A stretch of DNA of 64,000 bases from Octopus sinensis (taxonomy: Eukaryota). Position numbers and translations under genes: made by a program. Below the pieces are notes generated by a model. It searched no databases. It was given only the letters and a program-made list of their open reading frames with translations, and was not told where the DNA came from. The stretch covers positions 148,862,001 to 148,926,000 of the forward strand of contig NC_042998.1 in the NCBI RefSeq assembly GCF_006345805.1. The letters run 5' to 3'. Below, one piece after another: positions 28,786 through 57,270 of this stretch (positions within the stretch are counted from its first letter, which is position 1; each line of letters begins with the position of its first letter).

Positions 28786-29569
28786 TATATATATATATAT
28801 ATGATATATATATATATATATATATTTTTTTTTTGCTTGTCTTGTCCTTGGTTTGTGTCTATGTTTTTCGTCTCTATGTGTTCGACGTCTTTTGGTGTCC
28901 TGTACACATATATGCGTGTATATGTACATGTAGAGGTAGGTACGTACATATATGTTTATATATATGCATGGTGTTCTATTTTATTAACATATATACGACT
29001 AAACGCACGCACCCTATTAAGTAAGATTGTTCTGTTTATCAAGTTAGCCTTGATATTAACTCTCACGCGACTCTGCATCTTTCTTTCTTTCTCTCCCATT
29101 CCCTTTTTCGTCTTTTTTCCTCAATTAACTTGTCTCTTCCTCTTCTCTCTCCCCCTCACCGTTCTTCATGGTCTCCTCGCACCATTCCCCTTCTTCTCTC
29201 TCTCCTCTTGCTCCTCCTCCCCCATTCCCGTCGTCCATCTGCGACGATACTTCCGTCGTAACTGCTATCCTGTCTTTTCTCGCCCGCCTTCTAAGGCTAC
29301 TGGTCGACATTCTTTCTCTCTCGTCGTCCACTATAATCCAGCGTTTGCAATACTTTTTCGTTTCTGGCGTTAACAGCCCTTCTATCTTGTTCTCCTTGTC
29401 CTGTCTCTCATGTTGTAATATTTATTTTTCCACTGTTTATATATATATTTTTTACTGTTTATATGTTTGTACTGTCGTTAGCGTCTTGCTTTTTTTACCC
29501 CTCTGCGAAAAGATCTCAGAATTTTAATTGATTTGCTTTTCGCAGGAAGGAAGTGTTTCTTCGAAGTAT

Positions 29570-29630
29570 ACGTCTCGCTTTTATCCTTCGAAACGTTTAG
29601 TAGATGAAACTTAGCGACTGAAGAGGGGAT
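29570..29630 (+). ncRNA. Candidate non-circularly permuted hammerhead, copy 1
   Basis: ACG-TC|TCGCT..ATCCTTC-GAAA-CGT..AGCGA-CTGAAGA-GGGGAT. Confidence 0.55.
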
Positions 29631-30393
29631 TCTCGTTGTGCTTATTGTCCTGTATCTCTTTTTTTGCTTGTCTTGTTCCTTGGTTTGTGTCTATGTTTTT
29701 CGTCTCTCTATGTGTTCGACGTCTTTTGGTGTCCTGTACACATATATGCGTGTATATGTACATGTAGAGGTAGGTACGTACATATATGTTTATATATATG
29801 CATATGTATTTATTAACATATTTATCGACTAAACGCACGCACCCTATTAAGTAAGATTGTTCTGTTTATCAAGTTAGCCTTGATATTAACTCTCCGCGAC
29901 TCTGCATCTTTCTTTCTTTCTCTCCCATTCCCTTTTTCGTCTTTTTTCCCTCAATACTTGTCTCTTCCTCTCTCTCTCCCCCTCACCGTTCTTCATGGTC
30001 TCCTCGCACCATTCCCCTTCTCTCCTCTTTCTCTTGCTCCTCCTCCCCCATTCCCGTCGTCCATCTGCGACGATACTTCCGTCGTAACTGCTATCCTGTC
30101 TTTTCTCGCCCGCCTTCTAAGGCTACTGGTCGACATTCTTTCTCTCTCGTCGTCCACTATATCCAGCGTTTGCAATACTTTTTTCGTCTGGCGTTAACAG
30201 CCCTTCTTATCTTGTTCTCCTTGTCCTGTCTCTCACTGTTATATATTTATTTTTCCACTGTTTATATATATATTTTTTACTGTTTATATGTTTGTACTGT
30301 CGTTACCGTCTTGCTTTTTTTACCCCTCTGCGAAAAGATCTCAGAATTTTAATTGATTTGCTTTTCGCAGGAAGGAAGTTTTCTTCGAAGTAT

Positions 30394-30456
30394 ACGTCTC
30401 GCTTTTATCCTTCGAAACGTTTAGTAGATGAAACCTTAGCGACTGAAGAAGGGGAT
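30394..30456 (+). ncRNA. Candidate non-circularly permuted hammerhead, copy 2
   Basis: ACG-TC|TCGCT..ATCCTTC-GAAA-CGT..AGCGA-CTGAAGA-AGGGGAT. Confidence 0.55.
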
Positions 30457-31225
30457 TTCTCGTTGTGCTTATTGTCCTGTATCTCTTTTTTTTGCTTGTC
30501 TTGTTCCTTGGTTTGTGTCTATGTTTTTCGTCTCTCTATGTGTTCGACGTCTTTTGGTGTCCTGTACACATATATGCGTGTATATGTACATGTAGAGGTA
30601 GGTACGTACATATATGTTTATATATATGCATATGTTCTATTTTATTAACATATTATACGACTAAACGCACGCACCCTATTAAGAAGATTGTTCGTTTATC
30701 AAGTTAGCCTTGATATTAACTCTCACGCGACTCTGCATCTTTCTTTCTTTCTCTCCCATTCCCTTTTTCGTCTTTTTTCCCTCACTTAACTTGTCTCTTC
30801 CTCTCTCTCTCCCCCTCACCGTTCTTCATGGTCTCCTGTACCATTCCCCTTCTTCTCTCTTTTCCTCTTGCTCCTCCTCCCCCATTCCCGTCGTCCATCT
30901 GCGACGATACTTCCGTCGTAACTGCTATCCTGTCTTTTCTCGCCCGCCTTCTAAGGCTACTGGTCGACATTCTTTCTCTCTCGTCGTCCACTATAATCCA
31001 GCGGTTGCAATACTTTTTCGTCTGGCGTTAACAGCCCTCTTATCTTGTTCTCCTTGTCCTGTCTCTCACTGTTATATATTTATTTTTCCACTGTTTATAT
31101 ATATTTTTTACTGTTTATGTGTTTGTACTGTCGTTACACGTCTTGCTTTTTTTACCCCTCTGCGAAAAGATCTCAGAATTTTAATTGATTTGCTTTTCGC
31201 AGGAAGGAAGTTTTCTTCGAAGTAT

Positions 31226-31288
31226 ACGTCTCGCTTTTATCCTTCGAAACGTTTAGTAGATGAAACCTTAGCGACTGAAGAAGGGGAT
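31226..31288 (+). ncRNA. Candidate non-circularly permuted hammerhead, copy 3
   Basis: Same motif as copy 2. Confidence 0.55.
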
Positions 31289-31481
31289 TTCTCGTTGTGC
31301 TTATTGTCCTGTATCTCTTTTTTTGCTTGTCTTGTTCCTTGGTTTGTGTCTATGTTTTTCGTCTCTCTATGTGTTCGACGTCTTTTTGGTGTCCTGTACA
31401 CATATATGCGTGTATATGTACATGTAGAGGTAGGTACGTACATATATGTTTATATATATGCATATGTTCTATTTTATTAAC

Positions 31482-31513
<32 letters not shown>

Positions 31514-32055: not shown

Positions 32056-33368
32056 AAGAGCACCACCATTACCACAGATGCAAATACACGGGGACACATC
32101 AATACCTGACTTTTAAGTTGTGCCATCCACCACATACAAAACGCAACATCCCATACTGCCCACATCCCACTCGCTATGTTGGTGGTTCCTCTAAGGATTA
32201 CTGTAAAGCTGTCAACTTTGTCTCCTCGTGTAAATGTGTTGCGATTGGAATAGTTTTGACTACATTTAAGTTTCTAAACTATAGCTGCCTTATCTCCGCA
32301 ACCTTTTTCGCTTGCGGTACATTTGTATTCTTTTCAAAATTCGGCAGCACACTTGAACTAAATATATAACTAAAAGTATAGAACCTTAAACCTAAAAATA
32401 AAATTATTTTTACTGACTTTTCTCTTGACTTAGCTAGTATTTTCCTGCTATCGTCATCACGAACACCTTTAGTATTGTTGTTGTTAGTGGTCGTAGCAGT
32501 AGAAATAGTATCTCTAAGTATTAGTATTATTTAGCTTGGGTTGGAATTTATTAATATAGTTCTTTTCCCTGATTTTTCTCTCAGTTTCTCGTGGACTGTG
32601 TAGTTTGTAAAATGGAAATATTATAAATATTTTCCGAACATATGTTGCTAGATGGTTACTCAAAGGTATCTGACGGACATCTGGGTCTCTGATTTGCTGT
32701 CGGTGCACGCGCGAACGTTCTGATAGTGCATTTCCAGTCTGACCCACATATGTTCTTCACATTCGGGCATTTGATACATAAATTTCTTCTTTTGCATTTC
32801 ATATTTGGAGTTGTGAATATTTTCTCGGTTTTTGTGTTCATTTGTATGTATGAATTGACATGTGCCACACCGGCTCTCATTGCATTTAGATACAGTGAAT
32901 GATTGGTATTTGTTGCTAAGGTCAAACTTTGCCTTTGTTAATAATTTTTCAAGTTTTTAGGCTGTCTTTTACTAAGAACCATAGCTCGATCTGAGATTAT
33001 ATATTTTAATTCATTACCTTGATCAATGTTGATGATATTCTTGTGACATGCGTTGTATGTCATTATAAATGGTATGACTTGTTCCTGTTCTCCTCTTCTT
33101 TGAATTGTTCACAGTTGTTGTATGGGTATTTTTACAGCCCGCTGCATGCCATTTTCTATAAGTGGAGACGGGTATTTTTGTTTGAGCAAAAATTCTCTTA
33201 CTTCTATTAGGTATTTTGTTCCTGATATTTGCATCTTCTACAATGGTACAAATTCTTCTGGCTAGGCAGTATGGGATGTTGTGTTTTATATGTGGTGGAT
33301 GGCACAACTTAAAAGTCAGGTATTGATGAGTGTCCGTGTGTTTGTATCTGTGGTAATGGTGGTGTACT

Positions 33369-38140: not shown

Positions 38141-39919
38141 CCCCCCTCTCTCTCTCTCTCTCTGTCGTGCGTAAATATCTTTGTCTTCAAGCTATTAGTA
38201 CGTTCTCGCTACAACAGTACTTATTCTAAATTTTTTGCACTCCATCTATTTAAATATACTACTTACATTTCTCCCTCTATCGAAAACCGTTGTGATATAA
38301 TCCGATAAGCCTTCATTACAAACCAATGAGACTTCAACTACAACACTGAGCGTTCATGCGTTAGACAAAAATATCCTAAAGTGGCTCAAGTTTTTTCGCT
38401 CAACCTATTTACATCTAGAGCTTTATACGCTGAATTGAGGTTTGTAATTTCTGTCCACGAATTGACATCCTTGTATGATATAATATTGTTTCACTTTTAT
38501 TCTGCCACTTTTCATTCTAATATTGTTTCACTTTGTGTGCGTGTGTTTGCGCGTTCGATACGTACGAGATAGTAAACAACATTTTAAGCCACCACGACGG
38601 CGTCACATATATGAATGTGTATGTGTCTCTGATTGTATGTGTATGGGTGTATGAGTGTGTATGTCTCTCTGACTGTGTGTGTTTCCACATTAGGTACGTT
38701 ATTAAACATACACACACATCTACACATACATATACACATGTGACGACTGACATGCGTGAATGTATGTCTGTATGTGTCTCTCTTACTATAAGTATGTGAC
38801 TGTATGTGAGAGTGTATGTGTGCGTATCGTCACATTTTGTATATTAATGTGTATATATCTGTGAGTGTGTGTGTGTGTTTGCGCGCCCGTTACGTACGTT
38901 ATTAAACACACACATACATCTACACATGCATATGTGACGAGAACGGCTGGAGGTGAAATTCTTGACAAAAAACAATTACGTGGAAGGTTCAAGTTTTATA
39001 AAAATACACATCTACCGTTCAATTAACAGTTCCTAATTTGCAAGGTTGCATGGTATTTATAATTTGCTTATATCTGGTTATTTTACACTGCTAGCAAAAA
39101 TATAGGCATACAACATACAACTGCTTACAAGAATAGAAATTAGTGTATAGCTTTTCTATGTTCATAATTTCTTGTCTAAAATATTGGGGGGGGAAATGAC
39201 ACCAAAGAAAAACGTAATCTCTCCAGAAACACCTATAAAGCAAGGAGTGCAGAATACCGAAGGTGAGAGTCTCAAGACATAAGGGACATGAGACGTTCTC
39301 AATATCAGCAACGGCATCCTGCTGCACGTCAGTCTCAATACAGAAGGGACATGACACTTTCCAAAGATCACCAAACGCATGTTGCCGCACGTCAAATACA
39401 GTATCAAGAGAGAAGGGAGAGGAGACCTTCTCAACATCAGCAAAAGCATGCTGCAGCACATCAGATGGAGTGCCAAGACAGGAGGGAGATGAAACTTTCT
39501 CAAGATCAGCAAAAGCATGCAGCAACACATTAAATGGAGTCTGAAGACAGAAGGGAGATGGGACTTTCCCAAGATCAGCATGCTGCAGTACTTGATGCAG
39601 AATCATTACAACAACATTTAGCACGCCAAATTACGCAGAGGTCCAATAGAATAGCTCTCAGAAACAGACCGAATTCATTTTCCACAACACCTGGATCTGA
39701 TTTCAGATATGATCCATCCAATTCTTATAAAAAAATGATAACTCTGTCCAAATTGATGTGCTAAACTCATATTGTCGTTTATACAAAGCTTTAAATTTTA
39801 CTTCTCAAATGTTTTGTTGTCAATGCTGCACTATGCTGTATCACATGTTTCAACATAACTGTAATACATATACAAAATAAGCAGTTTTAATCCCGAGCAA
39901 CGCCGGGTATTTCTGCTAG
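37723..39919 (+). mobile_element. Non-autonomous Helitron (~2.2 kb) with RepHel N-terminal remnant
   Basis: A|TC 5' end; CCCGAGCAACGCCGGG hairpin (39892-39907) before CTAG|T; internal 23-aa repeats followed by FRYDP..Y and KALNF..CC. Confidence 0.75.
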
Positions 39920-46896: not shown

Positions 46897-47230
46897 GCGC
46901 AGGCATGGCTGTGTGGTAAGAAACTTCCTTCTTACCACATTGAATGTCTTCTAAATCCTTGTGAGTTGATATGGCAGACGGAAACTGAAAGAACCCGGTT
47001 GTATGTATATATACGTATATATCCCCGTGCATCTTTCTGTGTCTGCGTATCCCCCACCTCCGCTTGACAACCGGTGGTGCTGTGTTTACGCCCCCGTAAC
47101 TTACCGGTTCGGCAAAAAAGACAGATAGAATAAGCGGTAAGCTTTGAAAAAATAATTCCTGGGGTTGATTTGTTTGATTAAAACACTTCAGGGCGATGAT
47201 CCAGCATGGCCGCAGTTAAATGACTGAAGA
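46897..47230 (+). mobile_element. SINE family A (internal deletion)
   Basis: gcgcaggcatggctgtgtggtaag..ggcagacggaaactgaaaga..cccgtaacttaccggttcggcaaaa..ccagcatggccgcag. Confidence 0.8.
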
Positions 47231-48148: not shown

Positions 48149-48220
<72 letters not shown>

Positions 48221-48260
48221 AGCCGGTAGAGGAAGTCCCTCAACGAAGAGCGGTGCTTAC

Positions 48261-48303
48261 CATACGTTGAAAAGAGGCAATAACCTCGAAACCGGTCCGT
48301 GTG
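48261..48303 (+). ncRNA. Type I hammerhead ribozyme, U3-A8 variant
   Basis: CATACG-TTGAAAA-GAGG-caataa-CCTC-GAAAC-cg-GTC|CGTGTG. Confidence 0.8.
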
Positions 48304-48620
48304 TAGTATCCGTATCTTCGGGGAGGCTGATCTCCCTTTGCTGGCTGGCAAGGACACCGAGATGGTGTCAGCTCTTCTGGTGACGTCGATGTTCGCCTGG
48401 GGCTAAATGCATCAGTAACACCCCCACCACCCCGCCCTGACCCTAGCCACATTCAGATGGCTGATCCCTCTTATGTTATAGAGCAGTTACTGTTTATATC
48501 TCGCCCAGAGATTTATTATTGTTTTCGAACAGATTTTCTACGCCAGTGACTGTGGTTACTGTGAAAATCTATATATATCCAGCCGGTAGAGGAAGTCCCT
48601 CAACGAAGAGCGGTGCTTAC

Positions 48621-48663
48621 CATACGTTGACAAGAGGCAATAACCTCGAAACCGGTCCGTGTG
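48621..48663 (+). ncRNA. Type I hammerhead ribozyme, U3-A8 variant (second monomer)
   Basis: Same motif with core TTGACAA; differs only at free position 7. Confidence 0.8.
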
Positions 48664-48839
48664 TAGTATCCGTATCTTCGGGGTGGCTGATCTCCCTTTG
48701 CTGGCTGGCAAGGACACCGAGATGGTGTCAGCTCTTCTGGTGACGTCGATGTTCGCCTGGGGCTAAATGCATCAGTAACACCCCCACCACCCCGCCCTGA
48801 CCCTAGCCACATTCAGATGGCTGATCCCTCTTATGTTAT

Positions 48840-48900
<61 letters not shown>

Positions 48901-52190: not shown

Positions 52191-52236
52191 TATATATATG
52201 TATAAGGATGAAAAGGAACACACGAGTTGATATATG

Positions 52237-52681
52237 TGAAAATACAAGTCAGGATAGAAAATGCTAAAATAATTTTATAAAGAAAATTTCAGTACCGGTT
52301 TCAGTCATTGAGACCCTTTCAACTGTAACAATTAAATAAGTAAATTTAGAAAAATTAAAAGAACAGTTTTTTTAAAAGAATATTTCGTCTTCTTCCTCCC
52401 CTCCTCCTCATCCCCCTCCTTCTTCTTCTTCCCTACCAAGAATTCACAACGATCTCGAACCCACAAGAGTAAACAAGAGAGACAGAGAAAGGCAGAAACA
52501 AGGAAAATGCCACTTATATTTGAACACTATGCAAATATTCTTTTAAAAAAACTTTTCTTTTAATTTTTCTAAATTTAATTATTTAATTGTTACAGTTGAA
52601 AAGGTCTCAATGACTGAAACCAGTACTGAAATGTTCTTTATATAATTATTTTAGCATTTTCTATCCTGACTTGTTTTTTCA
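52237..52681. mobile_element. Fold-back element with a minimal U3-A8 HHR in each arm
   Basis: IR 52237-52385 / 52533-52681; CAG-TTGAAAA-GGTC-tcaat-GACT-GAAAC-ca-GTA-CTG at 52593-52628. Confidence 0.65.
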
Positions 52682-52695
52682 TATATATATATATA

Positions 52696-54234
52696 TATAA
52701 TTTCAACAATTGAGGGTAAAATTAATTAATTATTAATCAATTTCACCAAGTATTCAGTATGTAAAGGGACCATTATAGGCGAATTCAAAATATTACATTA
52801 TATATAAGGGCTTAGTAAAATAAATTACTTTGCCACATACTGAACTCATTAGAAATAGCAGCTAAAGAAATTTCTTCAGCTATTTCTAATACTTAAAGAA
52901 GATCTCTCTCAGATAGTGTTTGCCTAAACTAACTCACAAAAGTATGGGGGAAAAAACATTAAAAAATCAAGTGCAAAGGTTATTTGAGAACGTACGTTTC
53001 TAGATTAGTCAATTCGACATTTCTTTCTTCAGCTCAGAATTCCTTGAATCGGATTTGGGAACACTGAAAGTCGGGAGCATACCCTTTCGGCTTCTAATCA
53101 CCTCTAGAATTCTGCTCGAACTAAAAGTGCTATCAAATTCGAATATGCAAGCGAAGAATTTCTGCTCTCCCCTTTCCACCAGCGTGGGTTAAAATTGACA
53201 AACACCATGTATTAACGGTGAAAACCGCAGCATTTTACAGAGAAAGATGAATTATAATTTCAACAATTGAGGGTAAAATTAATTAATTATTAATCAATTT
53301 CACCAAGTATTCAGTATGTAAAGGGACCATTATAGGCGAATTCAAAATATTACATTATATATAAGGGCTTAGTAAAATAAATTACTTTGCCACATACTGA
53401 ACTCATTAGAAATAGCAGCTAAAGAAATTTCTTCAGCTATTTCTAATACTTAAAGAAGATCTCTCTCAGATAGTGTTTGCCTAAACTAACTCACAAAAGT
53501 ATGGGGGAAAAAACATTAAAAAATCAAGTGCAAAGGTTATTTGAGAACGTACGTTTCTTGATTAGTCAATTCGACATTTCTTTCTTCAGCTCAGAATTCC
53601 TTGAATCGGATTGGGAACACTGAAAGTCGGGAGCATACCCTTTCGGCTTCTAATCACCTCTAGAATTCTGCTCGAACTAAAAGTGCTATCAAATTCGAAT
53701 ATGCAAGCGAAGAATTTCTGCTCTCCCCTTTCCACCAGCGTCGGTTAAAATTGACAAACACCATGTATTAACGGTGAAAACCGCAGCATTTTACAGAGAA
53801 AGATGAATATAATTTCAACAATTGAGGGTAAAATTAATTAATTATTAATCAATTTCACCAAGTATTCAGTATGTAAAGGACCATTATAGGCGAATTTGAT
53901 AGCACTTTTAGTTCGAGCAGAATTCTAGAGGTGATTAGAAGCCGAAAGGGTATGCTCCCGACTTTCAGTGTTCCCAATCCGATTCAAGGAATTCTGAGCT
54001 GAAGAAAGAAATGTCGAATTGACTAATCTAGAAACGTACGTTCTCAAATAACCTTGGCACTTGATTTTTTAATGTTTTTTCCCCCATACTTTTGTGAGTT
54101 AGTTTAGGCAAACACTATCTGAGAGAGATCTTCTTTAAGTATTAGAAATAGCTGAAGAAATTTCTTTAGCTGCTATTTCTAATGAGTTCAGTATGTGGCA
54201 AAGTAATTTATTTTACTAAGCCCTTATATATAAT
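52696..54234 (-). mobile_element. 557-bp monomer tandem (2 copies plus a partial) joined to an inverted partial copy; one HHR per monomer
   Basis: Starts at 52696, 53253 and 53808; inversion at CGAATT 53891-53896; HHR at 52985-53036(-), 53542-53593(-) and 53995-54046(+). Confidence 0.85.
53995..54046 (+). ncRNA. Type I hammerhead ribozyme motif
   Basis: TGAG-CTGAAGA-aAGAaatGTCgaattGACtaaTCTa-GAAAC-GTAC-GTT|CTCA. Confidence 0.7.
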
Positions 54235-54432
54235 ATATATATATTATATATATGTATATTATGCGCAGGAGTAGCTGTGTGATAAGAAGCTTGCTTCCCA
54301 ACGACATAGTTCCGGGTTCAGTCCCACTGCATGGCACCTTAGACAAGTGATTTCTATTATAGCCTCGGGCTGACCAAAGCCTTGTGAGTGGATTTGGTAA
54401 TCGGAAACTGAAAGAAGTCCCTCGTATATATA

Positions 54433-54466
<34 letters not shown>

Positions 54467-54467
<1 letters not shown>

Positions 54468-55218
54468 GCAATAATAATTCTCTAAATGAGGTATAGACAG
54501 TGACTGCTCCATAATATAAGGGACATTAGCCAACCGAATATGGCTAGGGACAGGGCAGGGTGGTGGGGGTGTCACTGTTGCATTTAGCCCCAGGCGAACA
54601 TCAACGTCACCAGATAGGCCGACGCCATCACGGCGTCCTATATCTTGCAAAGGGAGATCATTCCCCAAGAAGCGGATGCCACACACGGACCTAGGTTTCA
54701 AGGTGTATTGCCTATTATCAACGTGTGGTAGGCACCGCTTCTCGACGAACGACACACCGTGCAAGATATATATAAAGATTTTCAAGTAAATACATTTACT
54801 GATTTCGAGACACCCCCACCACCCTGCCCTGTCCCTAGCCATATTCGGTTGGCTAATGTCCCTTATATTATGGAGCAGTCACTGTCTATACCTCATTTAG
54901 AAAATTATTATTGCTGTCGAACAGATTTTCGAAATCAGTAAATGTATTTACTTGAAAATCTTTTTATATATCTTGCACGGTGTGTCGTTCGTCGAGAAGC
55001 GGTGCCTACCACACGTTGATAATAGGCAATACACCTTGAAACCTAGGTCCGTGTGTGGCATCCGCTTCTTGGGGAATGATCTCCCTTTGCAAGATAAAGG
55101 ACGCCGTGATGGCGTCGGCCTATCTGGTGACGTTGATGTTCGCCTGGGGCTAAATGCAACAGTGACACCCCCACCACCCTGCCCTGTCCCTAGCCATATT
55201 CGGTTGGCTAATGTCCCT

Positions 55219-55223
<5 letters not shown>
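54467..55223 (+). mobile_element. Retrozyme-like element (355-bp monomer) in inverted plus tandem arrangement; sister family of 48211-48840
   Basis: 54467-54808 is the reverse complement of part of 54809-55223; gacaccccc repeats at 54809 and 55164; HHR at 55010-55055(+) and 54682-54727(-). Confidence 0.85.
55010..55055 (+). ncRNA. Type I hammerhead ribozyme, U3-A8 variant
   Basis: CACACG-TTGATAA-tAGG-caataca-CCTt-GAAAC-CTAG-GTC|CGTGTG. Confidence 0.75.
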
Positions 55224-55295
<72 letters not shown>

Positions 55296-55392
55296 TGTAT
55301 ATATATGTATGTATGTATGCGTTTGTTGTTTGTGTCAGTATTTGTTCCCCCAGCTTCGCTTGACAACAAATATTCGTGTATTTACGTCGCCG

Positions 55393-55436
<44 letters not shown>

Positions 55437-55611: not shown

Positions 55612-57226
55612 TGATAAAACGGTAAGATAACAAAAGAAAGAAAGAGACCTCAATATTATGTAAATAGAGGAAATTTATCTATACAATATGTTACATTACT
55701 CGGTAGTCAAGATAAAACTCTGAGTTTCAGATGCCGAAGTGGAAATCCACAACACCATCTCTTCGGTTATCTGGCTATTTGAAAACGTTATGAAAAAATA
55801 CCGTTAAAAATGAAGGGAAATTACTCTGTTATAACTGCTTTGCCTGCGTACTTATACATCGCTCGCATTTTTCGTCATAAAAATTATATAAAAATACATA
55901 AAAATATATAAAAATATATAAAAATATATAAAATCTTCTTGGGACATAACACAGAAAGCATGTTCTATCCGTTTTCTTTAGGGGACCAAAAACGTAACAG
56001 AAATTTAGTCACATGTGGGCATGATCCGAAAAGCTCTGTCCTTGTATTTAGACATGTGGTAGGGTCTAAGCTGCTTTTCCAGATAAGCCATCTCTCCATG
56101 TCGCATAAACCGCACCTTCCGCTGCCGTTAGTGTAGGCTTACATCTGGCCAAAATCTTCCATTGTATGTTATAATCGACACCTTTATCTCTTAAAGACCA
56201 AATATGATTGGATATTGTGTCGCTTTTCTTTTGTTCCAGTGCCTAAAGCTCAAAGTGTGGTTATTGAACCTGGCCTTGAAATTACCCTCTGTCAGGCCCA
56301 CGTATTTCTTCGTCGAAACGGTGTCTTTAGTGGTTATAGAGTTTACGGTAGCTTCATATATGATGGTCTTGGACATGCAAGCTCCATTTAGCGGGCACAA
56401 TTCTTTATTCCTGCATGAACAGCTGTTTTCTTCTTGTGTTTTTTGTATGTTATGATTGATTATGTTTTTAAAATTGGTAGTTGAACTAAAACTAATTTTT
56501 AAATTGTGTCTATTGAAGAGTTTCCTATAAGCATGGTTAACTGGAAAATGTCTATCTATCAGTGCTAGGAAATATTTACCATATTGAAGGCCACCTCGGG
56601 TGAGTAAGGGGGCATAAACCAGATGACCTTCCTATTTCTATTATTCCTTTTCCTTACTGTTGGGCTGGTGATAGGTGTATATTTATTTTTTCGCTAAAAC
56701 CACTATCTTTTAAAGCTTTATTATAAACTGGGGCAACGCTATTGAAGATGTCCTCATTGGATGAGAGGCTAGAAATCCTCTTACTAATATTAACTAAATT
56801 TTTGAATACTATAGGGGGATGGCATGAACCTACATTAATATAACTTAGTCTATCATTGGGCTTCCTATAAGGCTTATAAATATTATTATTAAGATCTAAG
56901 GAAACGTCTAAGAAATTGACAACCGTCAGGTTAGTGTCTATTGTTATACTAAGTCCGAACATGCTTTCTGTGTTATGTCCCAAGAAGATTTTATATATTT
57001 TTATATATTTTTATGTATTTTTATATAATTTTTATGACGAAAAATGCGAGCGATGTATAAGTACGCAGGCAAAGCAGAGTTATAACAGAGTAATTTCCCT
57101 TCATTTTTAACGGTATTTTTTCATAACGTTTTCAAATAGCCAGATAACCGAAGAGATGGTGTTGTGGATTTCCACTTCGGCATCTGAAACTCGGAGTTTT
57201 ATCTTGACTACCGAGTAATGTAACAT

Positions 57227-57233
<7 letters not shown>
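55611..57233 (-). mobile_element. 5'-truncated Penelope-like element with inverted pLTR
   Basis: RT C-terminus VNFLDVSLDL..YKPYRKPND..SCHPP; GIY-YIG CPLNGAC..IIYEATV..YVGLTEGNFKARFNNH; RCGLC..LNTRTEL..CPH; IR 55681-55965 / 56957-57233. Confidence 0.92.
57142..57204 (+). ncRNA. HHR-like motif in the PLE pLTR (also 55710-55772 on the minus strand)
   Basis: AGATAA-CCGAAGA-GATG..CATC-t-GAAA-CTC-g-GAG-TT|TTATCT. Confidence 0.6.

Positions 57234-57270
<37 letters not shown>

Follow-up and report, generated by a model that had tools for sequence, protein, structure and literature searches.

Positions 54467-55223 of a 64,000-nt stretch of the Octopus sinensis genome (hereafter the window) consist of an inverted arm and 1.17 copies of a 355-bp non-coding monomer carrying a type I hammerhead motif, and we consider it highly probable that they represent a retrozyme copy inserted in trans by the RT and endonuclease of a Penelope-like element (PLE). 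The element is a metazoan non-LTR retrozyme, a class that is already known, present here as one young, dispersed, non-coding copy.

The plus-strand run spans 415 nt (54809-55223; period 355) and is made up of a 5'-truncated 3' part of the unit (54809-54869) and a full monomer of subfamily B (54870-55224), which ends at the proximal one of two 3' ends described below and differs from the subfamily majority by 6 substitutions. The minus-strand arm (54467-54808) comprises a 5'-truncated monomer body of 298 nt (54511-54808), 99.3% complementary to 54929-55226, and a tail of about 44 nt (54467-54510) that ends at the distal 3' end; the arms meet at a blunt inversion junction, 54808/54809. An Rfam match to MIR2606 was rejected, as it merely reflects this inverted junction. 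The sequence-only reading had seen here an inverted partial copy followed by tandem monomers, and the order of the parts stands, but the supposedly partial copy amounts to 0.96 unit and carries the tail. Three variants are common to both arms, each of them rare in the family (6/40, 4/40 and 2/40 copies), as expected if both arms were made from one template. The element is bordered by (TA)n on both sides (54426-54466 and 55225-55292), and its flanks are the two halves of one plus-strand SINE (54255-54425 and 55296-55397), presumably a tRNA-derived SINE of octopus type. These halves are collinear with one other SINE copy (15550-15356 at 72% for the 5' part and 15325-15275 at 76% for the 3' part, the latter also collinear with 47000-47101), which bears out the proposed insertion into the (TA)n of a SINE. 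Each strand of the locus carries a single hammerhead (55003-55060 on the plus and 54677-54734 on the minus strand), so that a cut-to-cut monomer cannot be released from it. Two consecutive complete hammerheads, which mark a copy as active in the accessible text of a 2026 preprint (bioRxiv 10.64898/2026.07.22.740005), are absent at this locus and present in the 48-kb sister and at loci such as L008, L046 and L275. The locus at 54467-55223 is thus likely to be a dead daughter copy.

The sister insertion, of subfamily A (48207-48840, plus strand), contains 1.76 units of 360 bp in (TA)n, is not inverted and has two hammerheads. Its unit is identical to that of the window copy at 277 of 364 positions in a global alignment, confirming the homology that had been proposed. 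The neighbourhood holds several further insertions. One at 52696-54245 is two-armed and has a unit of 557 bp; it contains, near 53999-54050, a hammerhead-like motif whose helix III is palindromic, and it probably belongs to an unrelated retrozyme-type family. A short inverted insertion at 52230-52688 is likely a PLE 3' end; its hammerhead, near 52597-52630, is of the minimal U3-A8 form and similar to a motif in L103. The inverted insertion at 55673-57241 has a one-ended tail, and CCGAAGA forms the core of its hammerhead-like motif (near 57147-57200); L263 contains a similar end. Farther away, tandem repeats of ~830 and 69 bp occupy 28821-31489 and 39267-39580, respectively.

The layout recurs throughout the genome. 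After duplicates, edge-cut and unmatched cases were dropped, 143 distinct sites were kept from 180 loci, a sample that leans to the best, near-full-length matches. At 85 of the 143 the copies are inverted with both 3' ends pointing outwards, and the ends fall into 68 pairs of one proximal and one tail end, 3 proximal pairs, 1 tail pair and 13 pairs with an unclassified end. The same two fixed 3' ends, about 45 nt apart, appear at the single-strand sites (n=56), where 28 end at the tail, 25 at the proximal end and 3 elsewhere. At 103 of the 143 sites (TA)n lies on at least one side; among the 40 others, 21 share a flank string of 8-14 nt (a count made without a shuffle control), and duplications of 7-12 bp are visible. 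An inverted truncated arm with a one-ended tail is the published signature of PLEs (PMC8557442), and the available part of PMC11167929 explains the tail by two RT start sites and predicts the protein to be a dimer. The 68 sites with one end of each kind therefore support the suggestion that the inversion points to Penelope-type mobilisation. It could be argued from the several other long inverted repeats in the same part of the window that the inversion is an artefact of assembly or of local fold-back, and that the paired changes between the two units are chance differences between two sequences. However, those neighbouring repeats themselves carry hammerhead-like motifs, the layout recurs with differing break points and flank duplications, the two arms differ at 2 of 298 positions, and the covariation described below lies above all 100 simulations, so that we regard an artefact as vanishingly improbable.

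Genome-wide, the superfamily comprises at least eight subfamilies (A, B, B2, C, C2, D, E1 and E2), of which B2, C, C2, D, E1 and E2 were reached by following weaker matches. A first look at the genome gave 1540 candidates for B and 1852 for A, with 40 of each scored, and a 24-mer from the conserved block discussed below has 759 exact genome matches, whereas its reversed control has 0. Subfamilies A, B, B2, C and D are 57-88% identical to one another, and copies diverge from their majority sequence by 1.5-2% in A, B, B2 and C and by 8% in D. The units of all subfamilies are about 350-360 nt and non-coding, the longest ATG reading frame of the end-trimmed majority sequences being 36-88 aa, and arrays of 2-4 units occur at L008, L046, L262 and L275. 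More distant 360-nt hammerhead units at L131 (5700-6300), L172 and L133 have a similar multi-hairpin plan and tail hairpin and little sequence identity.

The hammerhead core, its three helices and the GUC site are present in 8 of 8 subfamilies. Rfam returned no hammerhead match in the window at gathering or E-value thresholds; hits at E up to 5 were limited to noise from fold-backs or repeats, and it is by the anatomy of the motif that we call it a ribozyme. In the window copy, the plus-strand motif at 55003-55060 has a U3-A8 core (55016-55022), a stem II with U-U at its base (55023-55037), a palindromic helix III and a predicted cut after 55049. Positions 3 and 8 of the core covary, being U3-A8 in four subfamilies, U3-G8 in one and C3-G8 in three; U3-A8 cores are known from PLE hammerheads (PMC4209133). 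The two palindromic loops of the sequence-only reading, CTAG and CG, were both found, whereas the conservation that it claimed holds only in part: the UUGANAA core is present in both units of the window but in only 4 of 8 subfamilies, and the loop II CAAUA, also present, in only 6 of 8. A perfectly palindromic helix III occurs in 7 of 8 subfamilies, as would be expected from the dimeric cutting described in PMC4209133. The U-U at the base of stem II, shared by subfamilies B and B2, may slow cutting in both. According to the accessible portions of the reports, 8 of 9 dimers tested in the 2026 preprint showed no cleavage, and insertion in vitro was independent of cleavage (PMC11167929).

The constraint on the RNA extends well beyond the hammerhead. 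The window monomer folds with a z of -4.58 (against 100 shuffles), and the circular folds of five subfamilies give z of -3.2 to -7.4 (25 shuffles each) with ~61-67% of bases paired and a common plan of P0, P1, P2, a long rod tipped by the hammerhead, P4, P5 and P6. On the plus strand of the window copy, the tail segment (54872-54915) includes one side of the predicted helix P0 (54878-54885 with 55159-55166) and hairpin P1 (54892-54902, with a rare G>A in this copy). Hairpin P2 follows at 54926-54958, with changes on both sides in 4 of 6 inner pairs, and then the long rod (54969-55096), which is predicted in each subfamily fold and whose arms are not alignable across clades. Beyond it lie hairpin P4 (55100-55116; both-side changes in 2 of 6 pairs), helix P5 with its conserved internal loop (55117-55151), and hairpin P6 (55192-55209), 13-19 nt before the proximal 3' end. 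A C-rich linker is unpaired; subfamilies C, D and E have it in a form shorter by 8 nt. Covariation was assessed with RNAalifold rather than R-scape on a sequence-only alignment of eight subfamily sequences, an effective sample of eight, and 17 of the 60 predicted pairs had clean double changes. In 100 alignments simulated along the ML tree and refolded, there were 2.3+-1.6 such pairs (maximum 8), and the covariance term was 0.95+-1.1 (maximum 4.5), compared with 5.2 in the real alignment. Among natural copies (n=11), 44 named pairs, from which P5 and the long rod were omitted because MAFFT misaligned them, were paired in 94.0% of cases versus 86.6+-0.8 in shuffles, with 17 double-changed pairs versus 8.4+-1.9, a number reached by 0 of 500 shuffles. 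In the same 11 copies, further pair types did not beat the shuffles (114 of 500), and the tail hairpin P1 and helix III showed no double change. By consensus energy the minus strand folds equally well (-49.6 versus -47.5 for the plus strand), with fewer double changes, 12 versus 17.

All five helix pairs quoted in the sequence-only reading are present in the sequence, and the covariation that it proposed from two units persists in the larger alignment, with hammerhead stems I and II among the covarying helices. Its extension to the entire RNA goes too far, given the unpaired linker and the lack of double changes in P1 and helix III; taken with the core changes and the palindrome, the covariation places most, but not all, of the unit under structural constraint, which acts on the source copies. 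In all probability, what is selected is how well the element can be copied, rather than any function for the host. Within the rod, an invariant CCCTT (55081-55085) is partly bulged in several folds, and RNAalifold pairs it with the invariant G-run of P5 (55143-55151); these nearly invariant positions could form a tertiary contact.

A conserved block, most of which lies in P5 (block 55124-55179), had been read as invariant and as a possible RT-recognition or promoter element. It is identical at 52 of 55 positions between the window unit and the 48-kb unit, and the probability of at least 51/55 identity is 0.001-0.014 at a background of 76-81%, for a segment chosen post hoc. The invariance holds in the A/B clade, but across the eight subfamilies only CTGG, CCTGGGGCT and CAGTRRCA persist. 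The first two bracket helix P5 with its internal loop; for CAGTRRCA, pairing in P0 with the first part of the tail is predicted, with 2 double-changed pairs. With regard to a promoter, consensus searches of both strands in the eight subfamilies gave no match to a Pol III A or B box or to a tRNA-like head, and no tRNA. A role in RT recognition plausibly fits a larger module that includes the tail, rather than the block alone. P1 starts exactly 38 nt after P6 in 7 of 7 measurable groups (from A, B, B2, C and E1; run-on copies were too few in an eighth, which was left out), and the insertion break points lie 13-19 or 59-63 nt after P6, a spread that is largely TA ambiguity. From this fixed geometry of the 3' end we infer that the RT reads the module as a whole, and the succession P6, proximal end, P0, P1 and distal end would likely be its docking signal.

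If the unit were the pLTR of a coding PLE that we did not see, and its copies the 5'-truncated remains of that element, no independent amplification would be needed. Such a relationship has precedent in Xenopus, where 24 of 57 retrozyme families are homologous to annotated TEs, 21 of 22 of them PLEs (bioRxiv 10.64898/2026.07.22.740005, in the part available), and the scope of our search, 150 of 5029 GIY-YIG endonuclease candidates scored and ~50 loci read, also leaves this reading some room. The copies speak against it: those that run past the tail mostly enter the next monomer, and arrays of 2-4 units exist. A tblastn search of 230 loci led to 10 element loci, 7 of which (read or overlapping) have (TA)n or other sequence between them and the PLE fragment; another 40 loci included 2 near a piece of PLE reading frame and 0 fused to it; and among 100 listed of the 759 block matches, none formed a same-strand pair at a spacing of 2-6 kb. 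None of the copies examined serves as pLTR to a coding PLE, in keeping with the independent amplification that had been proposed, and we judge a pLTR origin very unlikely. In L263, a PLE frame of 493 aa lies upstream of the element; it was rejected as a partner, being an independent neighbour.

The retrozyme would depend on a helper, and the genome contains young, intact PLEs with RT and GIY-YIG domains, whose 781-aa reading frames are 98.8-99.6% identical. The reading frames of 781 and 775 aa are Neptune-type, a clade assignment made from linker cysteines and not from a tree, while a young family of 842 aa (L313-L323), with a 4.4-kb unit, a long-stem hammerhead and an exceptionally long tail of ~73 nt, possibly belongs to the Hydra clade. 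The pLTRs of the intact PLEs carry hammerheads of their own, and none in the four autonomous families examined is homologous to the retrozyme unit. Tail lengths, judged by eye, are ~33-36 nt in PLE family P1 (40 by BLAST ends), 41 in family P4, 30-37 in family P5 and 73 in the 842-aa family, compared with 44-46 nt in the retrozyme, and do not single out a helper among the four. The tail of the 781-aa family has a small hairpin and an AT-rich end in common with that of the retrozyme. A tail motif, defined after both tails had been seen, matches masked loci totalling 2.2 Mb at 4 places, of which 3 are P1-type tails; the commonest tail variant of PLE family P1 (12 copies) is one base off the motif, so that the match is a lead only, and the Neptune-type family a weak lead for the helper. 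In Neptune-type elements (L121 1174-4874, L123, L124 and L127), a long reading frame, of 479 aa in L121, lies upstream and overlaps the start of the RT frame in a different frame, and a decayed, partly inverted Neptune-type coding fragment lies between (TA)n runs at 32082-33346 of the window. More speculatively, the module may be portable and of fixed length, docking a dimeric Penelope-type RT and setting both starts by its spacing, independent of homology to the helper's pLTR, with the tail hairpin motif naming a Neptune-type helper (L095, L119, L129 and L138); this we put forward tentatively and with considerable doubt.

With these elements, insertion in trans by a PLE could be envisioned as a series of steps. 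Tandem source copies would be transcribed, their hammerheads would cut as dimers via the palindromic helix III, and the monomers would probably be circularised. The PLE protein, probably as a dimer, would then nick both strands and use a single template to prime a pair of cDNAs. One of these would begin 13-19 nt beyond P6 and its partner 10-14 nt beyond P1, and their 5' ends would be joined to each other. Contigs from eight runs, seven of them guessed to be RNA, hold pieces across most of the monomer, with head-to-tail joints in three; tandem DNA also gives such joints, and these contigs are therefore uninformative on expression or circles. An A>G cluster was rejected as editing, as it occurs in a single low-depth contig of run X9 and is absent in X10 and X14.

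The same footprint could come from linear read-through multimers, the element being a non-autonomous PLE whose hammerhead is kept for another step, such as 5' processing, with no circle. Linear multimers would leave an identical tandem arrangement, helix P0 can also bridge the junction between linear units, uncut RNA served as the principal substrate and none of the reads stopped at the cut site (PMC11167929), and non-autonomous Chlamys elements form pLTRs and head-to-tail arrays (PMC8557442), as far as the accessible sections of both go. On the other hand, stems I and II covary, the palindrome of helix III has been kept through several sequences, and repeats of 330-390 nt in mussel and axolotl accumulate as circles, as given in part of PMC7229834. 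We find linear multimers possible, though rather unlikely. They differ from the cut and circularised monomer only in the template, and the PLE step is common to both.

The likeness to known systems, as far as the available portions of the cited texts go, is close on two sides. The metazoan retrozymes of PMC7229834, among them mussel units of 350-390 bp, share non-coding units of 350-360 bp with GC <50% and a highly self-paired fold, a canonical-size type I hammerhead with a short palindromic helix III, duplications of >4 bp and, in HHR_Amex2 of axolotl Rtz_353, the U-U at the base of helix II. In contrast to them, the octopus copies are mostly short two-armed inverted insertions and not arrays, the core is often U3-A8, and circles, demonstrated there, are a prediction here. 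The words inverted, microsatellite and cephalopod have 0 occurrences in the text of PMC7229834 at hand. The EN+ PLEs (PMC11167929, PMC8557442 and PMC4209133) share partial tandems, an inverted 5'-truncated arm, a tail at one end, (TA)n or AT-rich targets and the U3-A8 core variant, but they differ in having an ORF, a tail reported as 30-40 nt rather than ~44-46, and a minimal rather than canonical hammerhead. Non-autonomous PLEs are known from Chlamydomonas, and the non-autonomous Chlamys elements such as MRC1 (PMC8557442) are likewise non-coding, PLE-mobilised and found in head-to-tail copies; their 3' ends are generally similar to those of the autonomous partner, and Chlamys-type elements lack canonical hammerheads.

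PLEs were proposed as helpers of retrozymes in 2020 (PMC7229834), and the 2026 preprint (bioRxiv 10.64898/2026.07.22.740005) reaches the same conclusion as we do, that PLE machinery mobilises animal retrozymes. In its available text, that conclusion rests on co-occurrence and pLTR homology in vertebrates, and local amplification is also entertained, whereas ours comes from the insertion footprint of a unit without pLTR homology to the autonomous families seen. Titles and abstract beginnings, in a search largely outside subscription journals, revealed neither a cephalopod retrozyme nor a retrozyme with this tail-and-inversion footprint. The class being known, the gain is a sharper test and not a new kind of system. 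The findings touch two open questions, how animal retrozymes return to DNA and what the RT of a PLE recognises on its template; a pair of internal start sites has been demonstrated in vitro for a single autonomous element (PMC11167929, 2024). Fold, ends and an indel-free end module are common to eight diverged subfamilies, which narrows the recognition signal to ~100 nt, and it is the combination of their covariation with this fixed module that makes the recognition question testable; intact candidate enzymes are present in the same genome. If the reading of the module as portable is true, it would provide a defined 355-nt substrate and enzyme pair for the two-ended insertion of any RNA.
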